In this document: positions 12,291 to 61,710 of the stretch, one piece after another | How positions within the stretch are numbered: the stretch's first letter is position 1 | How the letters are laid out: every line of letters starts with the position of its first letter | NCBI RefSeq assembly: GCF_004010195.1 | Contig: NC_057717.1 | Span: forward strand, 107,321,093-107,385,092 | DNA from: Chiloscyllium plagiosum | Lineage: Eukaryota | Reading direction: 5' to 3' | DNA length: 64,000 nt | Program-made: the position numbers and the translations under genes | Notes under the pieces: generated by a model | Told to the model about the DNA's origin: nothing | What the model saw: only the letters and a program-made list of their open reading frames with translations | Database searches by the model: none

Positions 12291-12322
12291 GCTCTGACAA
12301 TCCAAGTGAAGCAGATCTACAG

Positions 12323-12558
12323 TGAAATAACACAATAAAGGCTGGTATACTGCCACCAAGTCATCCTTTATTTACACATGGAAAGTCCTTGACACTGGTC
12401 CAGCTCCCTCAGAGCCAGCTCTCAGAGTGAAGAGAACCTTCAACATTTTTCTTTATGTCTGTCAGGCAGGGCTCCCTGATTGGGCCAAATTAACATCCCC
12501 AATCGGGGAATTCATATTCTATGAGGTCTACTTGGCTGACCTCATTACAATAACTATA
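12323..12558 (-). repeat. 3' LTR of the Gypsy element
   Basis: Aligns with 16968-17188 (aaataac...caccaagtca..tttatttacacat...gctccctcag...ttctatgaggtc); purine tract AAGGGCGAGG (PPT-like) lies just inside. Confidence 0.75.
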
Positions 12559-13127
12559 TGCCTCGCCCTTGAGTCCAAAAACATAAGTCAGTCCTTTTTC
12601 TTGTTGCATCTCCGGAAGCGTTTTAGCACCAGGTCAGGTTCTTCTGAATCAGCATCATATACGGGTGGCATGTAATGCACAGGAGCACACCTATTGCACC
12701 TGGAGCACCTCAGGGGAAATTCACTCTTTGCTTCCTAAAGCACAAGATCTGACATGTGCATCACAGATTCCAAAGTTTCTTCAACGCTTGACAGAGTGGG
12801 AGAACTCACAGGGTCCGACTATTTTCAAGGAGCAGGGAATGTTTTACTCCCATGCCTTTTGCAAGCTCACGGCTTTCATATCGTCCACGTGCTTGTTAGG
12901 CATTCCTGATGCTATTTCACTCTTTCCCTCCCCCCCCCCCCCCCCCTCCCCCCTCTTCCTCAGGCCCAGAAAGATCCTATTTAACTTGATACGGAATCTT
13001 CTCCCCTTTTGCAACTCTGCTGGAGCTATCCTGTGGTTGCACGAGGAGTGGTCCTTTAATCAAATAGGAACTGGGACATTTTGGGATCTTGCGATGGTGT
13101 AGGCTGTTTCTTCAGGCCTATGTTGAC

Positions 13128-13630
13128 AGTGTGTTACTGGAAACGCACAGCAGGTCAGGCAGCATCTGAAGAGCAGAAAAATTGACTTTTTGTGTCAGAG
13201 CTCTTCATCAGGAATAAGGTTGAGAGATTCGGGGGGGGGGGGGGGGGAGAGGTGGAGAGATAAATGGGAGAGGGTGGGGCTGGGGAGAAGGTAGCTGAGA
13301 ATGCAATAAGTGGATGAAGGTGGGGATAAAGGTGATAGATCAGAGAGGAGGGTGGAGTGGGTAGGTGGGAAGGAAAAGGGAGATTGACAGGTGGGACAGG
13401 TTATCAGGGCAGTGCTGAGTTGGAAGGTTGGAACTGGGGTAAGGTGGGGGGGAGGGGAGGGAGAGGAGAAATGAGGAAACTAGTAAAGTCCACATTGATG
13501 CCCTGGGGTTGAAGAGTTCTGAGGCAGAAGATAAGGCATTCTTCCTCCAAGCGTCAGATAGTGAGGGAGTGGCGATGGAGGCGGCCCAGGACCTGCATGT
13601 CCTTGGCAGAGTGGGAGGAGGAGTTGGAGT
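13128..13630 (-). mobile_element. Penelope-like element 3' fragment inserted in the Gypsy integrase
   Basis: pLTR-type sequence cagcaggtcaggcagcatc..., purine-rich tract and ggcccaggacctgcatgtccttggcagagtgg, all shared with 48478-49963. Confidence 0.75.
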
Positions 13631-14735
13631 TTCTTCAAGCCTGCCTTCAAAATTTGGAATGCTCTTTCTGCCAGGCCATTGGATGATGAATAGTATGGAG
13701 CTGTACTGAGATGTCGAATCCCATTCGACTTTAGGAAATACTCAAGATCCCTGCTAGTATACAATGGCCTGTTATCTGTGACCAACGTTTCCAGGAGTCT
13801 GTGCATTGTAAAAGATGTGTATAGGTTTTGAAACATTGTTCCCATTTTTGACAAATGATCTCTATGCACGATAAATGTGGGTGTCTACAATAACTAAGAA
13901 CATTTAGCCCATGAAAGGACCTGCATAGTCAACATGTAACTGAGTCCAGCATTTACCTGGCAATTCCCATGAATGTAGAGGAGCTGCTGGCTGTAATTTT
14001 TGTCCTTGTTGGAACTCTGGGTACTGCCCACCAACACGGCTATGTCTGCAACCAAGGCTGGCCACCAAACATAACATCTCGCAAACATCTTCATATTGGA
14101 GACCCCTGAATGGCTCTGGTAAATTCAGCCACTATTTGCCAGCAACCTTTGCTCGGAACACTCTTGCTCCCCATAATAATATGCCGTCTTCTATGTAATC
14201 TGGTCTCTCTGGGTCCAAAAAATTTCAGTTTTGATTGTGATGGTCCTTTGGTTTCCCCAACTGCCACTAACTGTTTTAGTTTTGCCGGGACCAGATCTTT
14301 CTGTGTCCAAAGTCTACTATTGTCAGCTGTGACTGGAAGTGTGTCCAGAAAACTTAAAACCATTACGGATTGTTCTAGTGGCGGTATCACCGGTGGTGTA
14401 TGTGCCAGTGGGAGATGCCTCAATGCATCCACATTTGTTACCAGGCCTCCTGGACGGTGTTCCAACTCGTAATTATACGCAGTTAGTATAAAAGTCCATC
14501 GCTGAATTCGACCTGCAGTTATTGGCAGCTCAGCCTTGTCCTCTTTAAGTAGACCAAAGGAGGGTTTGTGGTCTGTTATTATTAGAAATTTACATCTGTA
14601 AAGGTATTGGTTGAACTTCCTGACTTCAAATAAGACCACCAAACCTTCCTTCTCTATCTGGGCATATTTACTCTCTGCATTAGCCAAAGTCCTTGATGTT
14701 GGGCATTCCTTTTCATTGGACCACCCATAAGCTAA

Positions 14736-14950
14736 GCAAAAGTGAGGACTGCAGATGCTTGAGATGAGAGTCGAGAGTGTGATGCTGGAAAAGCACATCA
14801 GGTCAGGCAGCATCCGAGGACCAGGAAAATTGACGCTTCTGGCAAAAACCCTTCATCAGGAGGGCTGATGAAAGGCTTTTGCCCGCAATGTCGATTTTCC
14901 TGCTCCTTGGGTGCTACCTGACCTGCTGTACATATCCAGCACCACACTCT
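14736..14950. mobile_element. Short fold-back (Penelope pLTR-derived) insertion with 15-bp TSD
   Basis: TSD ccacccat(a/g)agctaa at 14721-14735 and 14951-14965; about 85-bp inverted arms, each containing CTGATGA. Confidence 0.8.
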
Positions 14951-15029
14951 CCACCCATGAGCTAATACCAGTCCAATGCTATACAAGGAGGCATCGCATA
15001 TCAATACCAGATCTTGCTTGGGAGCACAA

Positions 15030-15337
15030 TTAGATTACATTTCAGTGTGGAAACAGGCCTTTCGGCCCAACAAGTCCACACTGACCCGCCGAAGCGCAAC
15101 CCACCCATACCCCTACATTTACCCATTACCTAACACTACGGGCAATTTAACATGGTCAATTCACCTGACCTGCACATCTTTGGACTGTGGGAGGAAACCG
15201 GAGCACCCAGACGAAACCCACGCAGACACGGGGAGAATGTGCAAACTCCACACAGTCAGTCGCCTGAGGCGGGAATTGAACCCGGGTCTCAGGCACTGTG
15301 AGGCAGCAGTGCTAACCACTGTACCACCGTGCCGCCC
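15030..15337 (-). mobile_element. HE1-type tRNA-derived SINE (V-SINE family)
   Basis: gggcggcacggtggtacagtggttagcactgctgcctcacag head, V-domain, taatcta tail; cacaat on both sides. Confidence 0.9.
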
Positions 15338-16967
15338 ACAATGTGCCAACACCTTCAAGAATGATATCTGTTTCTTCACTTCCTTGGCTACACAACCATT
15401 TCCAAGGCTGACCTTTTTTTTAAAGAGTTGGTGCAAAACCTAAAACCATTACGAATTGTTCTAGTGGCGGTATCAATGCCCAACATCAAGGACTTTGGCT
15501 AATGCAGAGAGTAAATATGCCCAGATAGAGAAGGAAGGTTTGGTGGTCTTATTTGAAGTCAGGAAATTCAACCAATACCTTTACAGATGTAAATTTCTAA
15601 TAATAACAGACCACAAACCCTCCCTTGGTCTACTTAAAGAGGACAAGGCTGAACTGCCAATAACTGCAGGTCGAATTCAGCGATGGACTTTTATACTAAA
15701 TTAGGATGGAGGTCAGGTTATGTATGAACTTTCTGTAATAGTTTACCAGCCAAGGAAACACCTAAGCTTTTTTACAGATGTGGGAACCAGGGAACCTTTG
15801 ATCGGCCTTACTTTATCTTCCAATAGATGTAACCTGGTCTCATCGACTCTGTAGCCCAAGTAGGACACTTGGGATGCCTGCAACACACATTCCTCCTTCC
15901 TAAGATGTACATATACCTTGAAGAAACATCTAATGAATATGTCCAAGTTCTCTGACTGCTCCTTATTGGTCTTCACTGTTATTAGCATATCATCTAGATT
16001 TATGGCGACCTGGGGTAGACCATATAAAATATTCTCCATTGCCTGCTGAAAAATTGCACAGGCTATTTGCCAGTCTCATATATTGGGATAAAATATTATG
16101 GGTATTAATTGTAGTACACATCTGGGAATCCTCATCTAACCACAATTGCAAGTATGCATAGCTCATGTCTAACTTTGTGAAGGACAGCCCCCATACTATC
16201 TTTGCATATAAATTCTCTATGTGTGGGATTGGGTATTTATCCAGCTGCAAAAAACAGTTTCTATTTGCAATCCCTAAAAAGGTGAACCAACCCATCAGGC
16301 TCCACAATTGTTATGACCAGTGCTGCCTACTCCGCTAAGTGGATTGGTTTGTTGATTTGTTTGCTTTCCAGCCTTCTGATTTCTGTCTCTACTTTTGCCC
16401 ATAAAGCAAATGGCACTGGCCAGGCCTCACAGAATCGTGGAATTGCTTCCTGGTCCACATGCAAGGTGGCCTTGACTCATTTGGTAGCCCCTACATCTTC
16501 CTAAAAGACTTTCAAGTATTTAATTATGACTTCACTTCGGCAGCCATTTTCTAATTGAAAAATGTTGAGCGAATCTAGGTGAATATTTCTCAAGTAATTT
16601 CGCTCCATCAAGCTTGGACTGGTAACTGAACCAGTTGCTTCTCATAAGTGACCGAAACTGAAGTTGTATCCTTAATCTGTAGAGGTTCCCTAGTATTGGT
16701 TCTCAGTCTAGCTGAGGTCTTGTCAAACTTAAGATTGGAATTCAGAGCGAATTTTGTTGAAGACTAGTTCTGCAATCACTGATATGGCTGCGTCAGTATT
16801 GACCATCATTCAAACTGGATGACTGTTTAACCAGATGTTTATTTTGATTGGTTTGGACAAGTAAAGATTCCCAAATAATGGCATGACGCCAGAAATGCTT
16901 ATCCCAAACTCAAAGACGACTGTTGCGAGAGAGTTTCTTTGGGAACATGCTTTACTCTCATCGCCAC

Positions 16968-21300: not shown

Positions 21301-22520
21301 CACTTACATTTATTATTGATTATCAATACCCTATCCTCATTCTCTGGAGGATCAATAATTATTTTATTTACTCTTTTCCTTTTTGGATGCCTGCAGAAAT
21401 TCCTGCTGCCTATATTTACATTTCTACCAAGCTTCCTCATGTATTGCAATTTATTTCTGCTGATTAACCTTTTAGTGATTCTGACCTATTCTGCATGTTC
21501 TGACCAATTATCTGACCTACCACACAGCTTTATGTAATTACATGCTTTTTCTTTATAAGTTTGATGCTTTCAAAATCTTGTTTAGTTAATCACAGGTGGT
21601 GGCTTATCTTTTTGGATATTTTCTTTGCATGCTCATTCTGAGTATTCTGAAACTTTCCCTTAACTGCCTCCCTATTGATTTATCTCCTCGCCTTGTATCC
21701 AATTTCATTTCAGTGAGTGCAGCTTCATGCCCGCATGGTTATCCTTATTGAAGTTTAAATACTAACCTCAGACCCATTCTTCTCCCTTTCAGACTGGATG
21801 TAAAATCCAATCATATTGTGATGCTGCTAATTGGAGATGGCTTTACATAGCCATTACTAATTTTGCCTCATTAATAAATCCTTTATAACTTGCTCTTTAG
21901 TTGATTCGAGGACATGCTGTACATAGAAACTAACTTGAGAACATTAGATAAGCTTTTCATTCAGAAGTTACAGTGGTTATTTCCAGCTCTTTATCACCAG
22001 CATCCAACTTCATCCTACATTATAGTTCCTCCCAGGGATCTGTGGACCATATCTACTAATTTTTGTTTCCTGTCTATTCCTTATATGTACCCAAACAAAC
22101 TCTATAGTATGATATCCTAAACCAAGGTCATCTCTATCTACTGCAGGGCCACTTTTGATTAAGATCTGATGCCTCCACTTTTGCCTAGCTTGTAATTCTT
22201 ATTGAATGCCATATATTCCTCAAATCTGCAGGACCACTCTGGATGCAGCCATTCCATAATGGCTATCAGAGCACATTTCTTTATTTCAATGATCACTATC
22301 AATTTACAGTCACAGAGTCATACAGCATAAAAACAGACACTCCAGTTCAAATCGTCCATGCCAACCATGTTTCCAAAACTAAAGAAGTCCCACTTGTCTG
22401 TATTTGGCCCATATCCCTCTAAACCTTTCCTATTCATATACCTATCCAAATGTCTTTTAAACATTTTAACTGTACTTACATCCACAACTTCCTCTGGTAG
22501 TTCATTCCAGATATTCACCA

Positions 22521-24424
22521 CAGGAGTATACTTAAGGGGGAAATCAGGAGGGCAAAAAGGGGACATGAGATAGCTTTGGCAAATAGAATTAAGGAGAATC
22601 CAAAGGGTTTTTACAAATACGTTAAAGACAAAAGGGTAACTAGGGGGAAAATAGGGCCCCTCAAAGATCAGCAAGGCGGCCTTTGTGTGGAGCTGCAGAA
22701 AATGGGGGAGATACCAAACAAGTATTTTACATCAGTATTTATTGTGGAAAAGGATATGGAAGATATAGACTGTAGGGAAATAGGTGGTGACACCTTGCAA
22801 AATGTCCAAATTACAGAGGAGGAAGTGCTGGATGTTTTGAAATGCATAAAGGTAGATAAATCCCCAGGACCTGATCAAGTGTATCCTACAACTCTGCAGA
22901 AAGCTAGAGAAGTGATTGCTGGGCCTCTTGCTGAGATATTTGTATCATCGATAGTCACAGGTGAGGTGCCGGAAGACTGGAGGTTGGCTAACGTGGTGCC
23001 ACTGTTTAAGAAGGGTGGGAAGGACAAGTCAGGGAAGTATAGACCAGTGAGCCTGACGTCGGTGGTGGGCAAGTTATTGGAGGGAATCCTGAGGGACAGG
23101 ATGTACATGTATTTGGAAAGGCAAGGACTGATTAGGGATAGTCAACATGGCTTTGTGCATGGGAAATCATGTCTCACAAACTTGATTGAGTTTTTTGAGG
23201 AAGTAACAAAGAGGATTGGTGAGGGCAGAGCGGTAGATGTGACCTATATGGATTTCAGTAAGGCGTTCGACAAGGTTCCCATGGGAAATTGATTAGCAAG
23301 GTTAGATCTCATGGAATACAGGGAGAACTAGCCATTTGGATACAGAACTGGCTCAAAGGTAAAAGACAGAGGGTGGTGGTGGAGGGTTGTTTTTCAGACT
23401 GGAGGCCTGTGACCAGTGGAGTGCCACAAGGATCGGTGCTGGGTCCTCTACTTTTTGTCATTTACATAAATGATTTGGATGTGAGCATAAGAGGTACAGT
23501 GTGTAAGTTTGCAGATAATCCCAAAATTGGAGGTGTAGTGGACAGCGAAGAGGGTTACCTCAGATCACAACAGGATCTGGACCAGATGGGCCAATGGGCT
23601 GAGAAGTGACGGATAGAGTTTAATTCAGATAAATGCGAGGTGCTGCATTTTGGGAAAGCAAATCTTAGCAGGACTTATACACTTAATGGTAAGGTCCAAG
23701 GGAGTGTTGCTGAACAAAGAGACCTTGGAGTGCAGGTTCATAGCTCATTGAAAGTGGAGTCGCAGGTAGATAGGATAGTGAAGAAGGCGTTTCATATGCT
23801 TTTGTTTATTGGCCAGAGTATTGAGTACAGGAGTTGGGAGGTCAGGTTGCAGCTGTACAGAACATTGGTTAGGCCACTGTTGGAATATTGCACGCAATTC
23901 TGGTCTCCTTCCTATCGGAAAGATGTTGTGAAACTTGAAAGGGTTCAGAAAAGATTTACAAGGATATTGCCAGGGTTGGAGGATTTGAGCTATAGGGACA
24001 GGCTGACCAGGCTGGGGCTGTTTTCCCTGGAGAGTCATAGGCTGAGAGATGACCTTATAGAGGTTTACAAAATTATGAGGGGCATGGATAGGATAAATAG
24101 ACAAAGTATTTTCCCTGGGGTTGGGGAGTCCAGAACTGGAGGGCATAAGTTTAGGGTGAGAGGGGAAAAATATAGGAGAGACCTATGGGGCGTCTTTTTC
24201 ACACAGAGGGTGGTACGTGTAAGGAATGAGCTGCCAGAGGAAGTGGTGGAGGCTGATACAATTGCAACATTTAAAAGGAATGGGTATATAAATACGAAGG
24301 GTTTGGAGAGATATGGGCCGGGTGCTGGCAGGTGGGACTAGATTGGGTTGGGATATCTGGTCGGCATGGATGGGTTGAACCGAAGTGTCTGTTTCCATGC
24401 TGTACATCTCTATGACTCTCTATG
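22521..24424 (+). mobile_element. Relatively young 5'-truncated CR1 (HER1-like) LINE, ORF2 RT pseudogene
   Basis: Three consecutive ORFs (22576-23292, 23289-23609, 23640-24341) give a near-continuous RT: KSPGPD, YRPVSLTS, YMDFSKAFDKVP, GVPQGSVLGP, KFADN. One frameshift and one stop; tail ctctatgactctctat. Confidence 0.92.
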
Positions 24425-25794
24425 TGGAAACATTGTCCCTCAGGACCCTTTTAAATATTTCCCCTCTCGTCTTAAGCTTATGCCTTCTAGTTTTGAATTC
24501 CCCTACCAAGGGAAAAGACCTTTGATTTTCAACATATTGATGCCCCTCATGATTTTATAGGTCTCTATAAGGTCACTCCTCAGCCTCCTGCAGCAAAGGA
24601 GTGATGTCAGACTCACCATTCTGCAGTTCCCTGACTTTTCTGTTCAGCCTCTTCTCAGAACTCAAACTCTCTAGTCCTAGCAACATTCATGTAAAACTTT
24701 TTGCACCCTTTCCAATTTAACAATATCCTTCATAAAGCAGCATGACCAGAACTGTATGCTGCATTCCAAAAGTGTCCTCCCCAATGTCCTGTACAACCGC
24801 AACATGAAGTCCCAACTCCTATACTCAATGCTCTGACCAATGAAAGCAAACATATCAAAAGCCTTCCTCACTACCCTGTCTATCTGTGACACCACTTTCA
24901 AGGAACAATGTACTTGAACCCCTAGGTCTCTCTGCTCGATAACACTCCCACTGCCCTACCATTAACTGTGTAGGTCCTGCCCTGGTTTGTCTTACCAAAA
25001 TGCAACACCTCCCATGTGATCTAACTTTACATACCAGTCTACTATGCGGAACCTTATCAAAGGCCTTGCAAAAGTCTATGTAGACAATGACTAAAACTCT
25101 GCCTTCATCAATCTTCCTGGTCACATCCTCAACAAACTCAATCAAGTTTGTGAGACATGATTTCCCATGCAGAAAATCATGCTGATTATCCCTAATCCGT
25201 CCTTGCCTCTCCAATGCATATAAATTCAGGCTCTCAGAATCCCCTCCAATAACTTAACCACCACTGACGTCAGACTCACCATCTTGCATTTTCCTGGCTT
25301 TTCTTTGTAGCCTTTCTTAAATAAAGGCAAAACATTTGCCACCCTCCAATCTTTGGCACCTCACCTATGGCTGTAGATGACATAAATACTTCTGCTAGGG
25401 GCCCCACAATTTCTTCTCTAGCTTCCCACAATGTCCTAGGATACACATAATCAACTCCCAGGGATCTATCTACCTTTTTAAGACCTCTCTTCTGTAATGC
25501 AGACCCTTTTCAAGACATCACTCTTTATTTCCTCAAGTTCCCTACCTTGCATGTCCTTCTCCACAGTAAATACTAACACAAAGTATTCACTTACTACTTC
25601 ACCCATCTCCTGTGGTTCCACATGTAGATGGCCTTGCTGATCTTTAACAGGCCTTATCCTCTCCCTACTTGCTTTTGTGCCCTTGATGAACTTATGCAAC
25701 TGTTTTTGATTCTCCTTAATCTTATCTGCCAAAGCTATCTCAAGTCTCCTTTTTCTCCTTCTGATTTCCCTCTTAAGTGTCCTCCTACACCCCC

Positions 25795-33064: not shown

Positions 33065-34650
33065 AAGTCATAGATGTAGAGTCATACAGCACGGAAACAG
33101 ACCCTTCGGTCCAACTAGTCCACGCTAACCATATTCCCAAACTAAACTAGTCCCACATGCCTGCATGTGGGCTATATCCCTCTAAACCTTTCCTATTCAT
33201 GTACCTGTTCATCTTTTAAATGTTCTAGCTGTACCTTCACCAGCACTTTCTCTGGCAGTTCAATCCACATATGAACCACTCTCTGCGTAAAACGTTGTCC
33301 TTCATGTCCTTTTGAAATCTTTCCCGTCCCACCTTAAAAATATGCCCCCTAGTTTTGAACTTTCCCACCTTAGAGAAAAGACCCTTGCCATTCACCTTAT
33401 CTATGCCCCTCATGATTTTATAAACCACTATAAGATCACCCCTCAACCTCCTATGCTCCAGTGAAAAAAGTCCCAGGCTATCTTTATAACTTAAACCTTC
33501 CATTCCTGGCAACATCCTGATAAATCTTTTCTGAACCCTCTCCAATTTAATAATACCCTTTCTACAGCAGGGTGACCAGAGGTGTACACAATACTCCAGA
33601 ACAAGCTTTATCAACACCCTGTACAACCTCAACATGTCGTCCCAAATCCTATACTCAAAGGTCTGAGCAAATCTTTATTCATTCATGGGATGAGGGCGTT
33701 GCTAGCTAGGCAGCATTTATTGTTGAGCCTAATTGCCCAGAGGGCAGTTAAGAGTCAACCACATTGCTCTGGGTCTGGACTCACATGTAGGCCAGAACAG
33801 GTAATGATGGCAGTATCGTTCCCTAAAGGACATGAGTGAACCAGATGGGTTTTTCTGACAATCAACATGGTCATTAGACTTTTAATTCCAGAATTTTAAA
33901 AATTGAATTCAAAATCCACTGTATGCCGAACCTAGGTCCTTAGAACATTATCTGGGTCTCCTGATTAACAGTAAAACCATTAGACCATCATCTCCACTAG
34001 GCAAGTATGCTAAATGGCTTCCTAACCACCCTTTCTCCATGTGATACAAATTTTTAAAAAATTATATTTCTAAACTGCTAGATCTCTCTCTACTATAACA
34101 TTACCCAGGGTCCTACCATTAATTCTATAAGTCTACCCTTGTTTGTTTTACCAAAATGCAATACCATGCATCTATCCAAATTAAACTCCTCAGTCCACTG
34201 ACCCAATTGATCAAGATCTCTTTGTAATCTTAGATTACCTTCTTCGCTGTCCACGATGCCATCAATTTTGGTGTCATCTACTAACTTACTCTCCATGTCT
34301 CCTAAATTCTCATCCAAATCATTTATATAAATGACAAACAAAAGTGGATCGAGTACCGATCCCTGTGGAACAACACTGGTCACAGGCCTCCAGTCTGAAA
34401 AACAACCGTCCACCAACACCCTCTGTCTCCTAAGATCAAGCCAATTTTGTATCCAGTTCACAAGTTCTCTCTGAATCCCTTGTAATCTAAATTTACTAAT
34501 TAGTTTACCATGTGGAACTTTGTCAAAGACTTTACTAAAGTCCATGTAAACAATGTCTACCGCTCTGACTTCATCAATCTTTTTCATTATCTCCTCAAAA
34601 AAACTCAATCAAGTTTGTGAGACGCAATTTTCTTCACACAAAACCATGCT
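33065..34650 (-). mobile_element. CR1 LINE RT/3' end, interrupted by a SINE
   Basis: ORFs 34093-34608 (YMDFSKVFDKVPH, VPQGSVL) and 33237-33635 (LEYCVHLWSP). Confidence 0.88.
33675..33997 (-). mobile_element. SINE (third family) whose 3' tail matches the LINE family at 1270-2890 / 59430-61710
   Basis: Minus strand ends gggcaattagg...caataaatgctgcctagctagcaacgccctcatcccatgaatgaataa; partial copy at about 55440-55680. Confidence 0.65.
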
Positions 34651-35599
34651 TTGTTTATGTTTCGCTGATATTGATTCTGCATTTTAGACTATGTTTTTAA
34701 AAATGTAGTGTTCGCTTGGTTTGACTCATGTACAGCAAAAAAAATTTGTTTTAAACTGTGGAATCTTGTGGGTTTTATTTCAATAAATTAATAAGATTTT
34801 GGATTTGTTCTTTTTTCAAAGTTATTGGATTCATCTGGGTTCAAATTAAAATTGGGGGCTTGTCCAGGATCATAACAAGAGCAATGACAATCCTATTCTC
34901 AGGCCTCTCCAAATGACAATTTACATCTACTCAATAAGATATGGGTATAGAACCTGGAGTGGCCCTCCCACCAATTCCTCGTCTAATTGCACAGAGACAA
35001 GTGTTACTCACTAACTTGCAAAGGCAACAGTTTCAATCCATGCCTCAAGAATTGCATAGTATATACAGTACAGAAACAAACCATTTGGCCCAAGCAATCT
35101 TTATCAGTATTTAGACTCCACTCAAGTTCTAACACTATCAGCATAACTCTCCATAAAATTCTTCTCCTATGCTTATCTAACTTCCCCTTGAATATAATTA
35201 ATCTATTTACTTCAACCTTCACTCCTTATGAAAACAAGTTCTACAATTTTACCACTCACTAAGAAGCTTCTTCTAAAATTCCTCTTTGTTTTTGGTAACT
35301 ATCATATTTTGCTAATCTCTTCCATAAATGGAAAAATGCTCCCCCTCGCTCTCTCTCTGCGCAATCAAAACCATTCATAATCTTAAACATCTCTTAACAG
35401 ACTACCAGTCTGTTCATCCTTTCCTGATATGTTTAACATGTAGAACAGAATGATGGGACATAGGTCTGCACCAATGTCTTCTCCATGCATGTTAAATGCT
35501 AACCAAATGGAGAAGCCATTCCCACTATGTGGGAAATAAAACATTACTTGAGCTATCTTCAATTGAATGTATTTTTCTTATCTTGATTGGTCTCTCATA

Positions 35600-41559: not shown

Positions 41560-42627
41560 CCACCTTGCTGATCTTTGAGGGGCCCTAGTCTCTCCCTAGT
41601 TACCCTTTTGTCCTTTATGCACTTGTAAAAACTCTTTGGATTCTCCTTAATTCTATTTGTCAATACTATCTCACGTCCCATTTTTGCCCTCCTGAGTTCC
41701 CTCTTAAGTATACACCTGCTTCCTTTATACTCTTCTAAGGATTCACTCGACCTATCCTGTCGCTTCCTTCTTTTTCTTAACCAAACCCTCAATTTCTTTA
41801 GTCATCCAGCATGCCCTATACCTACCCACCTTTCCTTTCACCCTGACAGGAATATACTTTCTCTGGATTCTTGTTATCTCATTTCTGAAGGCTTCCCATT
41901 TTCCAGCCGTCTCTTTACCTGCAAACATCTGCCTCCAGTCAGCTTTCAAAAGTTCTTGCCTAATACCATCAAAATCTATCTGCTGGAGTTATTTTCCCAG
42001 GAGCATCAGTGGCTGAGTGGTGACTTTATAGAGTTTTATAAAATTACAAGAGGCATGGATCAGGTGAATAGTCAAGGTTTCTCCCCAGGGTAGAGGAGTC
42101 CAAAAGTAGAAGGCATAGGTTAAGATGAGAGGGGAAGGATATAAAATGGACCCGAGGGGACTTTTTCACGCAGGATGGTGCAGGTATGGGATGAACTGTC
42201 AGAAGAGCTGGTGGAGGTTGGTGCAATTACAACATTTAAAAGACATCTGGATGGGTATATGAATAGGAAGGCTTTAGAAGGTTATGGGCCAGATGCTGGC
42301 AAATGGGACTAGATGGTTTTCCTCCGGGTGCTTCAGTTTCCTCCTACAGTCCAAAGGATGTGCTGGTTAGGTGAACTGGCCATGCTAAATTGCCCATAGT
42401 GTTCAGGGATGTGTAGGTTAGGTGCATTAGTCAGAGGAAATGTAGACTAATAGGGTAGGGGAATGGATACAGGTGGGAACCCCTTTGGAGTGCCGGTGTG
42501 GATTTGTTGGGCCAAATGGCCTGTTTCCACACTGTAGGCATTCCATGATTCTATGATATCTGGTCGGCATGGAAAAGATGGACCGAAGGGGTCTGTTTTC
42601 CGTGCTGTACAGGTCTATGTCTGTGTC
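41560..42627. mobile_element. CR1 fragments (minus 41560-41975; plus 41985-42627) with a truncated HE1 SINE at about 42316-42556
   Basis: NRIKENPKSFYKCIKDKRVTRE on minus; CR1 3' UTR on plus, split by SINE V-domain and tail, ends directly against the Tigger left end. Confidence 0.8.
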
Positions 42628-42639
42628 ACAACTTTGTTT

Positions 42640-43450
42640 TAACCGGCATCCTGGTCAGCCTGCCCTCTCGACAAACCGCCAAAAATGTTGAGCCAAGTCG
42701 TCAGCGGAGGGTGCGAGTGAGAAGGCTCGCTGCCGGTAGTTCCGTGTTCCGCCGCTGCCGGATCAGTGGCGCGCTTGGCACCTTCCTGCTTCCACTTCCG
42801 CCATATTGTTTGGGAGAGTCAGACAGTGGCGGCGGTTTGTCGCGAGAACAACTGCCCCCGGCGTCCGCCATGACGGAAACTCCGACCGCTCGCTCGAGCC
42901 GCAAACGTAAACGTGTGGTACTGACACTCAAGCAGAAAATAGAAATATGTCAACGGCTTGAGAAGGGAGAGAAGCGCAGTCAGATCATGACCGAGTTCAA
43001 CATTGGCTCGTCCACTATTTATGACATAAAGCGGCAGAAGCAGGAGCTGCTGAAGTTTTACACACTGTCAGAGAGCAGCGGGAGTGCGGATAAGAGGCGC
43101 ACGCTGAAGAAACCCAAACTGGAAGAACTCGACACGGTGTTGTACCAGTGGTTTGCCCTCAAGCGCCTGGAGGGGATTCCGATGACACGGGCGATGCTGA
43201 TCGAAAAGGCCAAGGAGCTGTACACCAAGTTGCAGCTGACTGGCCCTTGCGCCTTTTCTGAAGGCTGGCTCACTTGTTTTAAGTTACGGCATGGCATACG
43301 GCACCTGGACCTGTCAGGGGGGAGCACGGCAGCTGAGTGCCGAGCACAGGGATCGTTGTGTGATCACTTCGCAAAAATCGTTGCTGAACACGGTCTTTCA
43401 CCCGACCAGATCTATAACGCTGATGAGAGCGGGCTGCTCTGGAGATACCT
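42640..43450 (+). promoter_or_regulatory. CpG island / probable promoter of the JRK-like gene, with overlapping ETS and YY1 motifs
   Basis: About 30 CpG counted in 42661-42960, against CpG-depleted surroundings. ACTTCCG (ETS/GABP) at 42794-42800 overlaps CCGCCATATT (YY1) at 42798-42807. Kozak tccgccATG at 42870. Confidence 0.7.
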
Positions 43451-44531
43451 TCCGGAATCAGCTCTGCCAGGTTCTGGTGAGGCTCATGCTGAGGGATTGA
43501 AGAAGAACAAAGATCGGATAACAGTCCTCGTTTGCGCCAATGCCGCTGGAACACACCAGATAAAACTTTTTGTCGTCGGGAAATCCAAGAATCCATGTGT
43601 TTTCAAGAATTTGCGTCACCTACCTGTTGGGTACAGTGCTCAAAGTAATTCATGGATGGACGTTCAATTATTCACTCATTGGTTTCACCACTTTTTTGTC
43701 CCTTCGGTTAAGCAGCATTTCCGAAAGATTGGAAAACCCGAAGACAGCAAGTGTATCTTATTGCTGGATAACTGTAGAGCTCATCCTCCAGAGTCGAAAT
43801 TGGTGTCAGGAAATATATTTGTTATTTATTTACCACTGAAAGTGACTGCGTTAATCCAGCCCATGGACCAAGGGATCATCGAAAATTTAAAGTGTCACTA
43901 CAGAAAAAACTTATTACGTAAACTTTTGAGCAGTAATGAAAAGATTACCAAGTTTCAGAATGTATATACTCTGGAAGATGCAGTGTATAATGTAGCTTGT
44001 GCTTGGAAGTTAGTTAAGCCCCAGACTTTGAGGTGTGCTTGGCATAAATTATTGCCCAATGTAAGTTTATCTTCAGATGAAGAATTCGAAGATTTCAGAG
44101 TTTGTCAGAAGAAAAGTACAGTCATGGAAATGGCTTTGATGATGAAAAATGTGCAAAGTGATGAAAATCTTGTGTGTAAATTTAGTGAACAAGAATTGGA
44201 ACTGTGGGTTGATGTTGATAAAGATGTTAGGCATGTGTTGAATGATGATGAAATAATTAAGACCGCCTTGAATCCAACGAAAGAGAGCGAATCTGAAAGG
44301 AACACTGATGAAGAATTGCATGAAGTGAGGGTTTCTTGGGCTAAGGCGGCAGAGGCCTTTCAGGTGTTGCTTAAATTTGCTGAAACTCAAAATTGCTACA
44401 CCGCGCAAGAAGTCATTCGGTTACATTTACTGCATTCTACATTCTTACAGAAAAAGCAAGATTATTTTAAGCTAGCTGACATTCAGGATTTGTTTAAGAA
44501 AGAAAATGTTGAATCAGGTGGCGATCCTTGA
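42870..44531 (+). CDS. Intact JRK (jerky)-like / Tigger transposase-derived protein, 553 aa, single exon
   Basis: CENP-B-type N-terminal HTH (KRKRVVLTLKQKIEICQRLEKGE); second HTH (LDTVLYQWF...FSEGWLTCFKLRHGI); DDE_1 domain with YNADESGL, LLLDNCRAHP and QPMDQGII (DD32D); JRK-like C-terminal VSWAKAAEAFQVLLKFAETQ. No stops or frameshifts. Confidence 0.93.
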   Translation: MTETPTARSSRKRKRVVLTLKQKIEICQRLEKGEKRSQIMTEFNIGSSTIYDIKRQKQELLKFYTLSESSGSADKRRTLKKPKLEELDTVLYQWFALKRLEGIPMTRAMLIEKAKELYTKLQLTGPCAFSEGWLTCFKLRHGIRHLDLSGGSTAAECRAQGSLCDHFAKIVAEHGLSPDQIYNADESGLLWRYLPESALPGSGEAHAEGLKKNKDRITVLVCANAAGTHQIKLFVVGKSKNPCVFKNLRHLPVGYSAQSNSWMDVQLFTHWFHHFFVPSVKQHFRKIGKPEDSKCILLLDNCRAHPPESKLVSGNIFVIYLPLKVTALIQPMDQGIIENLKCHYRKNLLRKLLSSNEKITKFQNVYTLEDAVYNVACAWKLVKPQTLRCAWHKLLPNVSLSSDEEFEDFRVCQKKSTVMEMALMMKNVQSDENLVCKFSEQELELWVDVDKDVRHVLNDDEIIKTALNPTKESESERNTDEELHEVRVSWAKAAEAFQVLLKFAETQNCYTAQEVIRLHLLHSTFLQKKQDYFKLADIQDLFKKENVESGGDP

Positions 44532-44615
44532 ATGGTAGTGACTCAACCTGATGATCCTAGTAATGTGATTCTGGTGATAATGTTTAAGTTATGTTTTAAG
44601 TCTAATTTACATTTA

Positions 44616-45678
44616 CAGGGGAACCTCAATTATCCGAACGAGATGGGCGGGCACTATTTCGTTCGGATAATTGATTATTCGGTTAATTGATTAAATGCCT
44701 TTCCTCTGGGGCTCAAGAGTTTTTAAAAGTCTGATTCCCATTCAGGAGACTGCAGCAGCACACCAACCCCATCCAACCTCACGCCCCCAACCCCATCCAA
44801 CACCGCCTCCGCTCCAAACCTGTCCAGCTCCACCCTGCCCCTAACCCCATCCAGCCCCGCCCCAATCCCAAGCAAAACTCATCCCACCTCCCCAACTCTG
44901 TCCAACACCGTTTCTTCCCCCCCCGACCCCCCAGTCCGCCCTCACCCCCCTCTCCGGGGCAGCTGGACACCCAACAACAGGACTGCTGCTAGTGTAGCAG
45001 ATGCCTTTTTCTGGTAAGTCTCCAAATAGCGCACGCACGCACAGCCGCAGCCACACATACAACGTTTTGTGGGCGGCACGGTGGCACAGTGGTTAGTACT
45101 GCTGCCTCATAGCGCCAGAGACCTGGTTTCAATTCCAGCCTCAGGTGACTGACTGTGTGGAGTTTGCACGTTCTCCCTGTGTCGGCGTGGGTTTCCTCCG
45201 GGTGCTCCGGTTTCCTACCACAGTCCAAAGATGTACAGGTCAGGTAAATTGGCCATGCTAAATTGCCCTTAGTGTTAGGTAAGGAGTAAATGTAGGGGTA
45301 TGGGTGGGTTACGCTTCGGCGGGTCGGTGTGGACTTGTTGGGCCGAAGGGCATGTTTCCACACTGTAATGTAATCTAAAAAAAACCTTTTGACAGGTTCT
45401 GCCTTTGCCCTATACAGGACAATGTTGGAGAGATTATCTGGGGAAGGGGGGGAGGGTTTAGAGACACCCCTCTGTAGAACTCCAGGGAAAGTGTGGGGAG
45501 AGAGAGGGGATGGGAGGTCAGTTGTTTGGAGACTGTGCCTGTTTAATCACTGTAAACAAAAGACACGATGGCTGTTGGAAACACGTCTTTGATTAAATGT
45601 TTCTATCGGGACCTCGAGATCTCCTTCAGATAATCTGATTTTCGGATAATTGATATTCAGATAATCGAGATTCCTCTA
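44616..45678. mobile_element. Non-autonomous Tigger-type DNA transposon (MITE-like) with TA TSD
   Basis: TA|caggggaacctcaattatccgaa ... ttcagataatcgagattcctcta|TA (18/23 TIR match). ttcggataat subterminal repeats; internal ccaaccccatcc low-complexity tract; nested HE1 SINE. Confidence 0.85.
45071..45377 (+). mobile_element. HE1-type SINE, full length
   Basis: gggcggcacggtggcacagtggttag head to tgtaatgtaatcta tail; approximate TSD aacgttttg/aaccttttg. Confidence 0.9.
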
Positions 45679-48477
45679 TACATTACATTCTATAAGTTTT
45701 ATTTAAGGTATTATTATTTAAGTGATTTATGCTTTAAATAGACTACAACAAACATTTTATTAACCGGCACTTCTGGAACTGGGGTGTGCTGGCTGATCAA
45801 CCAGAATATTTGCTCAACCAGCAGACTCCTGGTTCCTTAGGTGCCACTTAATAAAAAGTTTGCTATATGTGATTGTAATCCACATGCACAGAGAGTGATG
45901 CAAAATATAGTGATGCTGCTCCTTTTGGCAGAAATGTACGAACATACAAACAGATAATTTAGGAGCAACAGTAGGACATGCAGCCCCTCTAGCATGCTCC
46001 ATCATTTGATAGAACTATTTGAGTTGACCATGGCCTCAAACATACATTTCTGCCTACCCCTGATACCATTTCAATCACTTGTTAGTTTTGCATCTGTTTT
46101 TCCTTGCCTTGAGAATGACCCAGCCTCAACTGCTCCCTGTGAAGACATTTCTCGTTCTTTCAAAGACCAGTGGATACAGGCTCAACTTGTTCAACCTTTC
46201 CTTATAAGGTAACTCCCTCATCCCAGGAATCAGTCAAGTTAACCTTGTTTGCACTACTACTTTACATTATTTTTTAAATAAGGAGATAAAAACAATACAA
46301 TACTCCAGATGTGGCCTCAGCGATATTCTCAATAACTGTAGCACAGCTGCCCTACTTTTATTTTCCATTCCTCTGACAATAAACAACAGTATTCAGTTTG
46401 TCTCCTGAAACACTTGTTGTACCTGGATACACACATTTTGTGACTCATGTATCAGGATGCCCAGAACCCTCTGTAGTTCAGAGTTCTACAGTCGTTCTCT
46501 CTATTTAAATAACATGCTGCTTTTCAGTTCTCAACAACAAATTACCCCTTTTAAAGGAACAATATAATCCTCTTTAAAGGGGTAACCCAGGCTTATTAAT
46601 ACAGTCATCAGCTGGAAACTGCAGAAGGAGTACTTGTAACGCTAAACACAACAAATACGATTTGACTGAAGGCACATCCTTTACAGAGACAGGAATGAAA
46701 AAACCAATGGTATTCCCATTGATCAATAAATAATGAACATTATAAAAATTCATCGTTGAGATCTGTCATCTTTTCAAACTTGGATACATTCAAAGAAAGC
46801 TTTTAATGTATTCCACATTTAGATTAATAATTAAATTTTCTTGTTGAATTTGGTCCCAGACCTCAGGGTCACAACCACTGTAGTTCAGCTTTCCTTTCAC
46901 CAGAGGGTGTCACAGCCATAAAGCATGCTGTATTTGGGGTCTGAAACTGCACTTTTCACTATACACAAGGTCCCTGGGTGACACAACAGGTTCCAGTACA
47001 TCCAGAACACATCAGAGCACAGTACAATACTGTAAAATATCTGTTCATAAGTATGTTCGCATGTCAGATCCTTAAAATTAATAGTAATGTGAAATCCCGG
47101 TCTTCAGTATCAGCAATCTTAAATCAGACATTCGTAAAACAGGCACCTCATGGATTTTAAAACAGTTTGAACAATTTACATTTAAATAGCCCATTTATCA
47201 CAAAGAACATCCCATGGATCTTCACCAATAGTGGAAAGCATATCAGATGTTGACCAGGCAAGATTGGAATTGAGAGCAAATGTTCAGAGAAAAAAATGAG
47301 ATTCCAAGACAGATGAAGAGCTTTGTGCAAGTTCAAAAGGGAAGCACAGTAAGCCCAATTTTAAATTGCTTCATTCAGCATCATTGCTCTTTAATACTGC
47401 ACGTATAATGGCGAAGCTATGCACAATTATCATCGGGACATCTGCTTCAGCATTGTTTTGTGCTGGCCAATGTAACATTTCGTGACTTAATGGTAACATT
47501 TTGGAGAAGCCTGTCTCATTCCTCACCTCTCCCTAACTCCTGTCTCCGACTGTCTCCTATATCCTGAATCTCTATCTCCATTTTCGTGACTCTCTCTCTC
47601 CCCATCTCTTCGACTGCTTGATATTCCCCAACTCTCTCTCTCTCTCTCTCTCCCACTCCCCAGCTCACTCCTAATTCCTGACTCCTTCCATCTCTCACTC
47701 TGTCTCCTACTCCCTGACTCAAGTAGTGCTCCATTGAGAGCCAAATTTCTCACTCCTGTCATTGTTACATCTGCAACAAAGGGAGACCCATTTTAATTTG
47801 GCAAAACTAGCAGCTTTAGTGTCAGTCACCATGTGAATCCTTTATGGATATCCTGTGCTAATATGAAATGCACCATCCACCCACCCCCAACAAAATTAAA
47901 ACTCCCTCACAGTCTCTCAAACCCAGCCCCCAACATCTGAGAACCCGCCAATACCCCAGATTGCCATCCATTTGTCCTCCTTCAGTAACTGGCTGTAGTC
48001 CAGCAGCGGCCATTGCTTGAACCTGGGCTGCTGGGACTACAGAACTGCCTGCAAACCAAACGGTCTGCAGAATTCTGAGGTGGCACTTCTTCTCTAGGTG
48101 GACCAGGTGGAGAGATGTATCACCCTTAGTCAGTTAACACTTTGAGTGATCTATAGCTATGGGGCAGCCAGTTTTAGCGAGGTGATATTCTGGTGGTCTA
48201 GCCTCGCACTTGTGTGGTGCAAATGTTATTTGCCATTTTTCAACTTAAGACTAGATATTGTCTCAGTCTCATTGCATTTGGTATGGGCTGCTTCAGTTTT
48301 TGAGGAATTGTGAACGGTGTTAAATATTGTGTAATCGTTGGCCAACAGCCCCACTTCTGACCTTATGGTAGAGGGAAGGTCATTGATAAAGCAGCTAAAG
48401 GTGGTTGGGCCAAGGACACTATACTGAGGAACTCTTGGAGAGACATCGTGGAACTGAGATGACTGACCAACAGCCAC

Positions 48478-59429: not shown

Positions 59430-61710
59430 CATGACATCAGGTCAAACATGGGCAAGAAAATCTCCTGCTGATTACCACCTACCTCACCTCCCCCCACCCC
59501 CGACTGATGAATCAGAGGCCCTCAATGTTGAATATCACTTGGAGGCAACAATGATGGTGGCAAAGGAACAGAATGTACTCAGAATTGGGAATTTCACTGT
59601 CCACCACCAGCAGCACTACTATAGACTGATCTGATCGAGTTCTATTGGAAATAGTTGCCAAACTGAATTGTGAGGAAATCAATAAAAAAGGGAAAAAAAA
59701 ACATACTCCATCCTCCCCAATCTGCCTGCTGCAGATGTGTCTGTCCATTACAGTATTGATAGGAGTGTCAACTGCACAGTCCTCCATCATGGTGTGTGGC
59801 ATTATCATTGTGCTGAATGGGATAAACTTTAAACAGATCTAGCAATACGAGGCTGCATACCCATGAGGCACTATGGGCCATCAGCAGCATAATTGTTTTT
59901 GAACCTAATGGCCCAACATATATCCCCACTTTACCATGACGTCAGGGGATCAAAATAAAGAGAGAAAATATTGAAGAAACAACACAGATCTGGCAGATCT
60001 ATGGAAAGAGAAATGCTTTAAATGATTATTCTTCAGTGCCAGTGGATCAACCCTGGTTCAAAGGAGTGCAGGATATACCAGGAGCAGCATCGGCATATCT
60101 AAAAATGAGTTAACAACCCGGTGAAGATCAAAGCCAGGGCTATTTGCTTACCAAACAGCAAGTGATAAACGGAGCTAAGCAATTCCACATCCAACAGATA
60201 AGATTTAAGCTCCACAGTCCTCAGCCAATTTGATTCACTCCACACAATATCAAGAAAGCTCTGGATACTGCAATGGCTGTGGGCCCTGAAAACATTCCAG
60301 CAATAATTCTGAAGGTGTGTGCATCAGAACTTTTAGTTCCCATAGCTAAGCCATTCTAGGACAGATACAACACTGGCATCTACCCAATGGTGTAGAAAAT
60401 TGACCAAAAAGCGGGACAAATCCAACCCAGCCAATTACCAGCTCATTTTATTCTCAATCATCAGTAAAATGATAGAAGCTGTCACAAATAGCACTTGCTT
60501 AGCAATAACCTGCTCAAGGACCATTCAGTTCCTGATCTCATCACAGCTTTAGTTCAAACATTTACAAAACTGATGAATACTAGAGGTGAGGTGAGATTGA
60601 CTGTCCTTGACATGAAGGGCACATTTAACCAAGCGTGACATCAAGAAGCCCTGATAAACCAAGGGTCAAAGGCAAATCAAGGAGAAAATTCTCCAATTGT
60701 TGGAGTCGTACCTGGTACAAAAGAAAATGGTTGTGATTGTTGGAAGTCAGTCGTCTCACTTCCAGGATCCTCAGCAGTGTCCTAGGCCCAACCATCTTCA
60801 TTTGCTTCATCAATGACCTTCCTTCCATCATAAGGTCAAAAGTGGGGATGCTTGCTGATGATTACACAATATTCAGCATCATCCATGACTCCTCAGACAC
60901 TGAAGTAATCCATGTCCAAATGCAGCAAGACCTGGACAATATCCAGATTCGGGCTGAGAAGTGGCAAGTAATATTCACATTACATAAGTGCGAGGGAATG
61001 TCCATCCCCAACAAGAGAGAATCTAACCATCACTAATTCACATTCAAAGGCATCATTATCATTGAATCTCTCACTATCAAAATCCTGGGGGTTGCCATTC
61101 ACCAGAAAAAAGAATCAGACTGGCCACATAAATACTGGACAGAGGCTCAGAATCCTGCGGCAAGTAACTCATGTCCAGATTCCTCAAAACCTGTTCACCA
61201 TCTGCAAGTCATAAGAAATATGTGATGGAATACTTGCCTCTTACTTAGATGAATGCAACAACCCCCACCAAGCCTGTCACCATCCATCCAGGACAAAGCA
61301 GTCCACTCAATTGGCACCACATCCACAAACTTTCACACCATTCATCACCAACACTCAGTAGCTCCAGCAGTCCATCTATAAGATGCAATGCAGAAATTTA
61401 TTAAGGCTCCTTAGACAGTACCTTCCAAACCCATCAACACTACCACCTGAAAAGGCGAGGCAGCAGATACATGGGAACACCTACAAGTCTCCTTCCAAGC
61501 CAAATACCATCCTAACTTGGAAATATATTGCCCCTCCTTCAGTATCACTGGATCAAACTCCCTCCCTAACAGCACTATGGGTGTTCTATTAGCAATGACT
61601 GCAGTGGTTCAAGAAGGCGGCTCACTACCATTTTCTCATGGCCATCTAGGGATGGGCAATAAATGCTGGTTCAGCCAGTGATACCCACACCCCACGAATG
61701 AACAAAAGCA
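59430..61710 (+). mobile_element. Decayed non-LTR retrotransposon, same family as 1270-2890
   Basis: SVLGPTIFICFINDLPSIIRSKVGMLADDYTIF; 3' tail gggcaataaatgctgg...cacgaatgaacaaaa. Confidence 0.78.

Follow-up and report, generated by a model that had tools for sequence, protein, structure and literature searches.

An Intact Tigger-Type Transposase Gene

The window analyzed here, 64,000 nucleotides (nt) of contig NC_057717.1 from the shark Chiloscyllium plagiosum, contains a single-exon gene that we consider a candidate for a domesticated Tigger transposase. Its open reading frame (ORF) occupies positions 42870–44531 of the plus strand, is free of stops in the standard genetic code, and encodes a Tigger/pogo-type transposase-derived protein of 553 amino acids (aa) plus a stop codon (P0001), as a preliminary description of the stretch had stated. 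The stop-to-stop frame opens at 42549, and 42870 is its first in-frame ATG. The protein has the domain order of the pogo/Tigger group, in which CENP-B_N plus HTH_Tnp_Tc5 are followed by DDE_1. The first two (residues 12–63, Pfam E value 3.9e-18, and residues 85–145, 1.3e-13) form a DNA-binding region encoded at 42903–43304 (+), the third (residues 214–391, 6.2e-49) is encoded at 43509–44042 (+), and all three score far above their cut-offs.

In an alignment of 12 proteins, the catalytic triad of P0001 was found complete, with codons spanning 43422–43868 (+): D185 in YNADES (43422–43424), D300 in LLLDNC (43767–43769), and D333 in QPMDQG (43866–43868). The last two aspartates are separated by 32 residues, which agrees with the first description and gives a DD32D signature of the DDxD type by which Tigger is recognized. 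Elsewhere in the alignment, the third site is E in mouse JRK (QPTEQG) and G in Alligator sinensis, and the echidna protein is without the second and third catalytic residues.

By sequence, the only solved relative is the DNA-binding domain of CENP-B (1hlv), which matches residues 14–140 (E value 3.3e-08). An AlphaFold2 model of P0001 built with 62 homologs had a mean pLDDT of 76.7, the values lying mostly at 85–97 across residues 161–400, the catalytic core. Foldseek's top fold matches for it in the PDB were three transposases, Mos1, Metnase/SETMAR, and Sleeping Beauty, along with the DNA-binding domain of CENP-B; the match probability was 1.00, but the whole-chain E values were weak (1.7e-3 to 2.4e-2, none at or below 1e-3), and the matches have value as a consistency check only. 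Read in that way, the predicted structure matches the RNase-H-like fold of Tc1/mariner transposases.

Eroded Termini and Nested Repeats

Tigger elements end in short terminal inverted repeats (TIRs; ~20 bp, beginning CAG) with a TA target-site duplication. At the left of the gene we found the TIR remnant CACAACTTTGTTTTAACCGGCA (42627–42648, +), in which the outer bases are eroded, CAC stands for CAG, and no TA lies directly outside; at the right end, a TA does adjoin the repeat. The core of the remnant is homologous to a published Tigger TIR. A motif derived from the TIR of alligator and softshell-turtle elements (PMC9219625), CTTTGTTN{1,4}CCGGCA, matched once in the 64 kb, at 42632–42648 (+) and 222 nt 5′ of the ATG, where 0.01 matches were expected. 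The elements in question are, according to Table S1 of that survey, Alsi_1 from Alligator sinensis (2516 bp, 597-aa ORF, 10 copies), Almi_2 from A. mississippiensis (2503 bp, 597-aa ORF, 29 copies), and Pesi_2 from Pelodiscus (2442 bp, 586-aa ORF, 4 copies), which have the TIR CAG[C/T]AAAAGCTTTGTTATCCGGCA in common (PMC9219625). Among the Table S1 rows listed for 'CCGGCA', both halves of the motif occur together solely in Alsi_1 and Pesi_2, the TIR of Almi_2 as printed ending at CCGGC with the same core (PMC9219625). The ORF lengths of the three elements equal those of the annotated proteins P0005 (597 aa) and P0008 (586 aa). In the shark, the left end has CACAAC for its outer bases, a shortened form of CAGCAAAAG. 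By the homology of its core, we regard the left end, 42627–42648, as the remnant of a genuine Tigger TIR.

The two ends had been described as TIRs matching at 15 of 19 positions. The match itself held: 42630–42648 agrees with the reverse complement of 45842–45860 at 15/19 positions, a score reached by 1 of 2000 shuffles of 44532–46100. The sequence named as the right TIR, however, is the outer arm of a self-contained miniature inverted-repeat transposable element (MITE)-like unit of the same family. This unit of ~120 bp (45744–45867) has TA on both flanks and 36-nt arms that are 78% complementary. Its outer arm (45842–45865) is the counterpart of a right TIR and holds an AATAAA at 45850, and its inner arm (45746–45769) repeats the left TIR in direct orientation, the 19-mer 42630–42648 recurring at 45751–45769 with 16/19 matches (0.03 expected in the window). 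Just the terminal ~24 nt of the left end are held in common with the arms of the unit.

Between the stop codon and the ~120-bp unit sits a nested MITE-like insertion of ~1.06 kb (44621–45680, boundaries approximate), whose 18-nt arms at 44621–44638 and 45641–45658 are 89% complementary. As the first reading of the 3′ flank had it, this insert holds a further repeat, similar to a short interspersed element (SINE), at ~45070–45370. Positions 45181–45367 of the SINE-like repeat are 79–88% identical to 42307–42536, just left of the element. The DNA left of the left TIR consists of the repeat tail that also forms the 3′ part of the repeat within the insert. ARAGORN found no tRNA head in these SINE-like repeats. 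With its terminal CAG eroded to CAC, ends that match at 15/19, and an insertion nested in its 3′ region, the transposase copy looks immobilized, as had been supposed from its ends, and lost or degenerate ends of this kind are a mark of domesticated transposases.

Three further features of the ~1.06-kb insert were noted. Its termini (…CCTCAATTATCCGAAC…; 44621–44674 and 45619–45658) resemble by eye an insect Tigger TIR listed in PMC9219625 (Table S1), …CTCACTAATCCGGCACT; possibly the insert is a MITE from a different Tigger subfamily. A 19-nt hairpin (44626–44674, 95% complementary) lies inside it, and at 44759–44912 there are five C-rich units of ~25 nt (CCCCAACCCCATCCAAC…), spaced 24–51 nt from one another.

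Relatives and Phylogenetic Position

We searched annotated proteins with P0001 and obtained 450 matches, of which the best 120 were listed; the comparisons that follow are among annotated proteins. The counterpart in Chiloscyllium punctatum (GCC36032.1; P0002) has 553 aa and is identical at 531 of 553 positions (96%), and isoform X1 from Rhincodon typus, the whale shark (588 aa), already named 'jerky protein homolog' by NCBI, is identical at 476 of 565 (84%), with an intact triad and only two indels, both in frame. Outside sharks, the highest identity among the matches listed was that to the coelacanth (58–59%), with alligator at 57%, turtles at 54–57%, possum at 51%, and mouse JRK at 44%; for the reptile proteins P0005 and P0008, which NCBI likewise calls 'jerky protein homolog', identity to the shark protein is 57% and 54%. 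The remaining Tiggers, among them the ones named from Narcine, Leucoraja, and Pristiophorus, were 46–48% identical. When proteins were clustered at 90% identity, C. punctatum and R. typus each had one locus, a count from which repeat-masked copies would escape. Among 56 matches classed as 'shorter', none exceeded 63% identity and none was named as orectolobiform.

A perfect splice-donor-like GTAAGT lies in frame within the shark ORF at 44061–44066 (codons V398–S399). Isoform X2 of R. typus (P0003, 417 aa) diverges from the full-length protein exactly at this point, directly after …PN, which suggests that in the whale shark an internal donor there is spliced to a downstream exon.

The nearest relatives differ in how they behave in their genomes. 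The coelacanth proteins P0004 and P0007 belong to clusters of 15 and 5 members, the larger spread over contigs of at least 8 different sizes, and coelacanth Tigger copies with <2% divergence have been reported (PMC9219625); by its copy number and similarity, the JRK-type Tigger of the coelacanth is a live or recently live transposon. In turtles, the cluster of P0006 (at least 90% identity) contains one 'jerky homolog' per species, always on a contig of 349–374 Mb, and this looks like a conserved single-copy gene. We also observed a KRAB domain (PF01352) fused to a JRK-type transposase in Pelodiscus (P0011, 639 aa) and in the caecilian Geotrypetes (P0043, 902 aa), P0011 clustering with the crocodilian proteins P0090 and P0116 in the neighbor-joining (NJ) tree.

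Trees were computed by NJ with Kimura or gamma distances and complemented by four-point quartets. In the NJ tree of 121 proteins (526 columns, 100 bootstraps), mammalian JRK grouped with reptile and coelacanth proteins in a clade with 90% bootstrap support that takes in the multicopy coelacanth sequences, and the shark trio was recovered in 100% of replicates. The group joining the shark trio to the JRK clade, with one further protein and a spider sequence, reached 37%. In a reduced set of 60 taxa, the split uniting shark and JRK appeared in 14 of 200 bootstraps (7%), and among 7540 quartets, 55–64% favored shark with JRK and 34–39% shark with arthropod Tiggers. The sister placement of the shark trio to JRK is thus weak. 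By its best identities (57–59%, against 46–48% for other Tiggers) and the homology of its TIR to those of the reptile elements, we assign the window element to the JRK-type Tigger lineage. The likeness to JRK that had been noted for the protein was in this respect correct, but its nearest relatives are those of coelacanth, turtle, and alligator, not of mammals.

In the account of Gao et al. (2020; PMC7386202), JRK is a mammalian domestication restricted to mammals, and JRK-like sequences of cartilaginous and lobe-finned fishes are scored as pseudogenes; the shark entries given there are proteins other than the window protein. The JRK lineage seems to exist in turtles as one gene copy and in the coelacanth as a live transposon. 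Such a pattern does not agree with this published 'mammals only' origin, and the comparison suggests that the history of JRK is older and less tidy.

Signs of Selection on the Reading Frame

The families of orectolobiform sharks split before the Cretaceous–Paleogene boundary (PMC8529718), and the ORF is intact in the two other orectolobiform species. Between the window and Rhincodon, we counted 76 differences at 552 aligned sites. When sites were grouped by their conservation in the family, the differences affected 7.1% (8/113) of those at or above 0.9, 9.0% of those at 0.7–0.9, 18–20% of those at 0.3–0.7, and 11% (7/63) of those below 0.3; they are depleted at family-conserved sites (permutation P = 0.004). 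We also simulated neutral evolution. Run to 76 aa differences (~110 nucleotide changes), the simulation ended with the ORF still free of stops in just 0.67% of its 600 runs; at the 22 differences found to C. punctatum, 24% of runs stayed open, and this distance is uninformative. The simulation allowed substitutions only, and frameshifts would reduce the open-frame figures further. Judged by these protein-level proxies, site depletion and neutral ORF survival, the data indicate purifying selection on the transposase protein, in line with the earlier proposal that selection had kept the ORF.

The differences to C. punctatum cluster in residues 1–180 (17/180, against 5/373 in the remainder; P = 1.5e-5). 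CpG decay was considered as the source of this N-terminal excess and rejected, as CpG transitions can account for just 5 of the 22. Polarized with Rhincodon, 12 of the 17 N-terminal differences are derived in P0002 and 1 in the window, and the excess therefore belongs to the C. punctatum record and not to the window; after parting from C. punctatum, the window protein acquired just 4 clearly derived changes. The excess in P0002 would come either from rapid, lineage-specific change in the DNA-binding region or from draft-assembly errors in a GC-rich part. Many of the N-terminal changes in P0002 are transversions or changes towards G/C.

A CpG Island over the 5′ Part of the Gene

The window as a whole has an observed-to-expected (o/e) CpG ratio of 0.24, and the flanks of the gene lie mostly below 0.3. 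From 42630 to 43600, a span that takes in the 5′ leader and ~730 nt at the start of the ORF, we found a GC content of 0.54 and an o/e ratio of 0.91, with 65 CpGs; in the 5′ leader alone the ratio is 1.0. With thresholds of GC ≥ 0.5 and o/e ≥ 0.6 applied to 500-nt segments, this is the sole strong island in the 64 kb. The only other segment to pass, 44601–45100, is borderline (o/e 0.63) and corresponds to the C-rich units of the nested insert and their neighboring sequence. We regard the island at 42630–43600 as a putative promoter: In a vertebrate genome depleted of CpGs, an old copy that has retained them was probably unmethylated in the germline, as active promoters are. Inside the CpG-rich leader there is also a 16-nt inverted repeat of 94% complementarity (42665–42680 / 42831–42846; CTCTCGACAAACCGCC / GGCGGTTTGTCGCGAG).

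Possible Domestication in Carpet Sharks and Its Alternatives

We give an even chance to the reading that the gene is a domestication of a JRK-type Tigger transposase in the shark (orectolobiform) lineage, parallel to mammalian JRK and not orthologous to it. On this reading, the single-exon gene descends from a Tigger DNA transposon whose lineage also includes the low-copy elements of alligators and the softshell turtle as well as mammalian JRK; the copy is immobilized, and its full-length transposase would have been retained by the carpet sharks through host-level selection. Transcription would begin in the CpG island, grown from the element's own 5′ end, and the protein would bind DNA sequence-specifically via its CENP-B-type double helix-turn-helix. 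Because D185, D300, and D333 and the RNase-H-like core are intact, the protein may still nick or cut DNA. We infer domestication, promoter use, DNA binding, and any catalysis. The more far-reaching proposition, of an independent carpet-shark domestication of a JRK-type Tigger transposase that, unlike most pogo-derived host genes, still possesses a working DD32D nuclease center, appears to us doubtful.

Retention of a transposase as a host gene, the probable explanation here, is a known and expected kind of event. In tetrapods, pogo/Tigger transposases have repeatedly become host genes (CENPB, JRK, JRKL, the TIGDs, POGZ, and POGK), and in the literature searched, we found no clear pogo/Tigger domestication described in cartilaginous fishes. 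If the reading is true, the shark gene, with recognizable ends, a matching MITE, and an intact triad, would represent domestication at an early and still legible stage. Under the more far-reaching proposition, it would also be a counterpart of mammalian JRK among cartilaginous fishes, its host keeping a potentially active cut-and-paste enzyme. The enzyme's own ends would then be dead, while matching MITE ends are still in the genome.

The gene can be set beside several known systems. The reptile elements Alsi_1, Almi_2, and Pesi_2, with their 'jerky protein homolog' products P0005 and P0008, have the same domain order and DD32D spacing, 54–57% protein identity, a similar size once the nested insert is subtracted, and termini CAG[C/T]AAAAGCTTTGTTATCCGGCA homologous to the shark CACAACTTTGTTTTAACCGGCA; in contrast to them, the shark copy has eroded outer bases, nested repeats, and a left end without TA, its protein is 34–44 aa shorter at the C terminus, and the reptile elements are present at 4–29 copies (PMC9219625). 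Mammalian JRK likewise consists of a single coding exon from a complete transposase, with CENP-B_N, HTH_Tnp_Tc5, and DDE_1 and DD32D/E spacing, but its identity to the shark protein is just 44–51%, the mouse protein has E at the third site, and the shark copy has kept recognizable TIRs. The coelacanth Tigger family of P0004 and P0007 is closer in sequence and has the same architecture, yet its 15 and 5 cluster members lie over many chromosomes, as would be expected of a live or recently live transposon and not of a single retained gene. CENPB, JRKL, TIGD2-7, POGK, as well as POGZ, resemble the shark gene in that a whole pogo-superfamily transposase was retained by the host; most of the pogo-derived host genes, going by their descriptions in Table 1 of PMC7386202, have lost part of the triad, whereas the shark protein keeps all three aspartates.

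A number of observations weigh against domestication. The constraint signal is moderate, and 8 of the differences to Rhincodon still fall on highly conserved sites. The window lineage has evolved faster, having 27 changes specific to it where the Rhincodon lineage has 10 (P = 0.008), and its changes at near-invariant family sites include G107R, P108A, E151G, A160Q, T187S, C193Y, F348L, and W395L; at nine sites with at least 85% conservation across the family, both hemiscylliid sequences, but not Rhincodon, carry a replacement. The distribution is narrow, as among the matches listed no counterpart above 50% identity came from other cartilaginous fish. The closest relatives behave as transposons, multicopy in the coelacanth and TIR-flanked at 4–29 copies in reptiles. 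A ~120-bp MITE with the same termini adjoins the gene, and the family was therefore once mobile in the shark lineage. An active low-copy Tigger family would keep its ORFs open too, and a young copy would show a CpG content like that of 42630–43600.

The last points lead to the alternative that the gene was never domesticated and is one dead member of an autonomous Tigger family, low in copy number, that remained active in carpet sharks up to a fairly recent time, which we consider unlikely, if the main contender. The young age of the copy would then account for its frame and CpG content, and the ORFs would be intact in three species through selection acting on the transposon. The behavior of the lineage in coelacanth, where it is possibly active, and in reptiles (PMC9219625) fits this explanation, as do the intact triad and the MITE-like unit with the same termini 1.2 kb downstream. 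What speaks for domestication instead is that each species has one locus among annotated proteins, that the listed matches contain no close fragments, and that the eroded termini and nested 3′ repeats do not suit a young copy. The small number of clearly derived changes in the window protein since the C. punctatum split, just 4, also argues against this alternative, as does the fact that the C. punctatum Tigger entered in the survey belongs to a different family, with the TIR CAGTAGCGCC... and a 306-aa ORF (PMC9219625).

That the gene is a true ortholog of JRK, stemming from a single domestication in the jawed-vertebrate ancestor with subsequent loss from most fishes, amphibians, squamates, and birds, we judge to be quite improbable. 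The turtles, with one conserved copy per species on 349–374-Mb contigs, imply that the gene is older than mammals, the best identities of the shark protein are to the JRK clade (57–59%), the DD32D spacing agrees with that of JRK (Gao et al., Table 1, PMC7386202), and the NJ tree of all 121 proteins shows the sharks as the sister group of that clade. However, this grouping has the low bootstrap and quartet figures given above (37%, 14/200, and 55–64% of quartets), the JRK clade itself includes multicopy coelacanth transposons, the recognizable TIRs in shark and reptiles fit transposons persisting in parallel, and no counterpart in other cartilaginous fishes was found among the matches listed. 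Highly improbable is a neutral relic, an old dead copy whose frame was kept by chance in a slowly evolving genome: The acceleration of the window lineage, its replacements at family-invariant sites, and the 24% of simulations still open at 22 differences would suit it, but at the Rhincodon distance just 0.67% of neutral runs stay open with frameshifts not counted, differences are depleted at conserved sites (P = 0.004), and the CpG o/e of 0.91 stands within a window at 0.24.

Other Features of the Window

The preliminary description had placed the gene in a PDE4 intron. We scanned with Pfam the longest 285 of the 615 stop-to-stop ORFs of at least 45 aa in the window and found no PDE match, and a PDE signature motif was likewise without a match in the window. 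The two scans also recognized no host exon; the proposed context thus gained no support from these ORFs or the motif, which does not disprove it.

The second-longest stop-to-stop ORF in the 64 kb has 263 aa, and the remaining Pfam matches in the scanned ORFs were fragments of RVT_1, RT_RNaseH, and rve only, plus one weak match to DUF7021 under the cut-off, so that the other transposon ORFs of the window are broken, as first described. The pieces of reverse transcriptase, RNase H, and integrase are frame-shifted and lie on both strands, at 12300–16300, 22300–25300, 33200–34700, and 60700–61000; by their domain content, they are decayed LINE and LTR-type retroelements.

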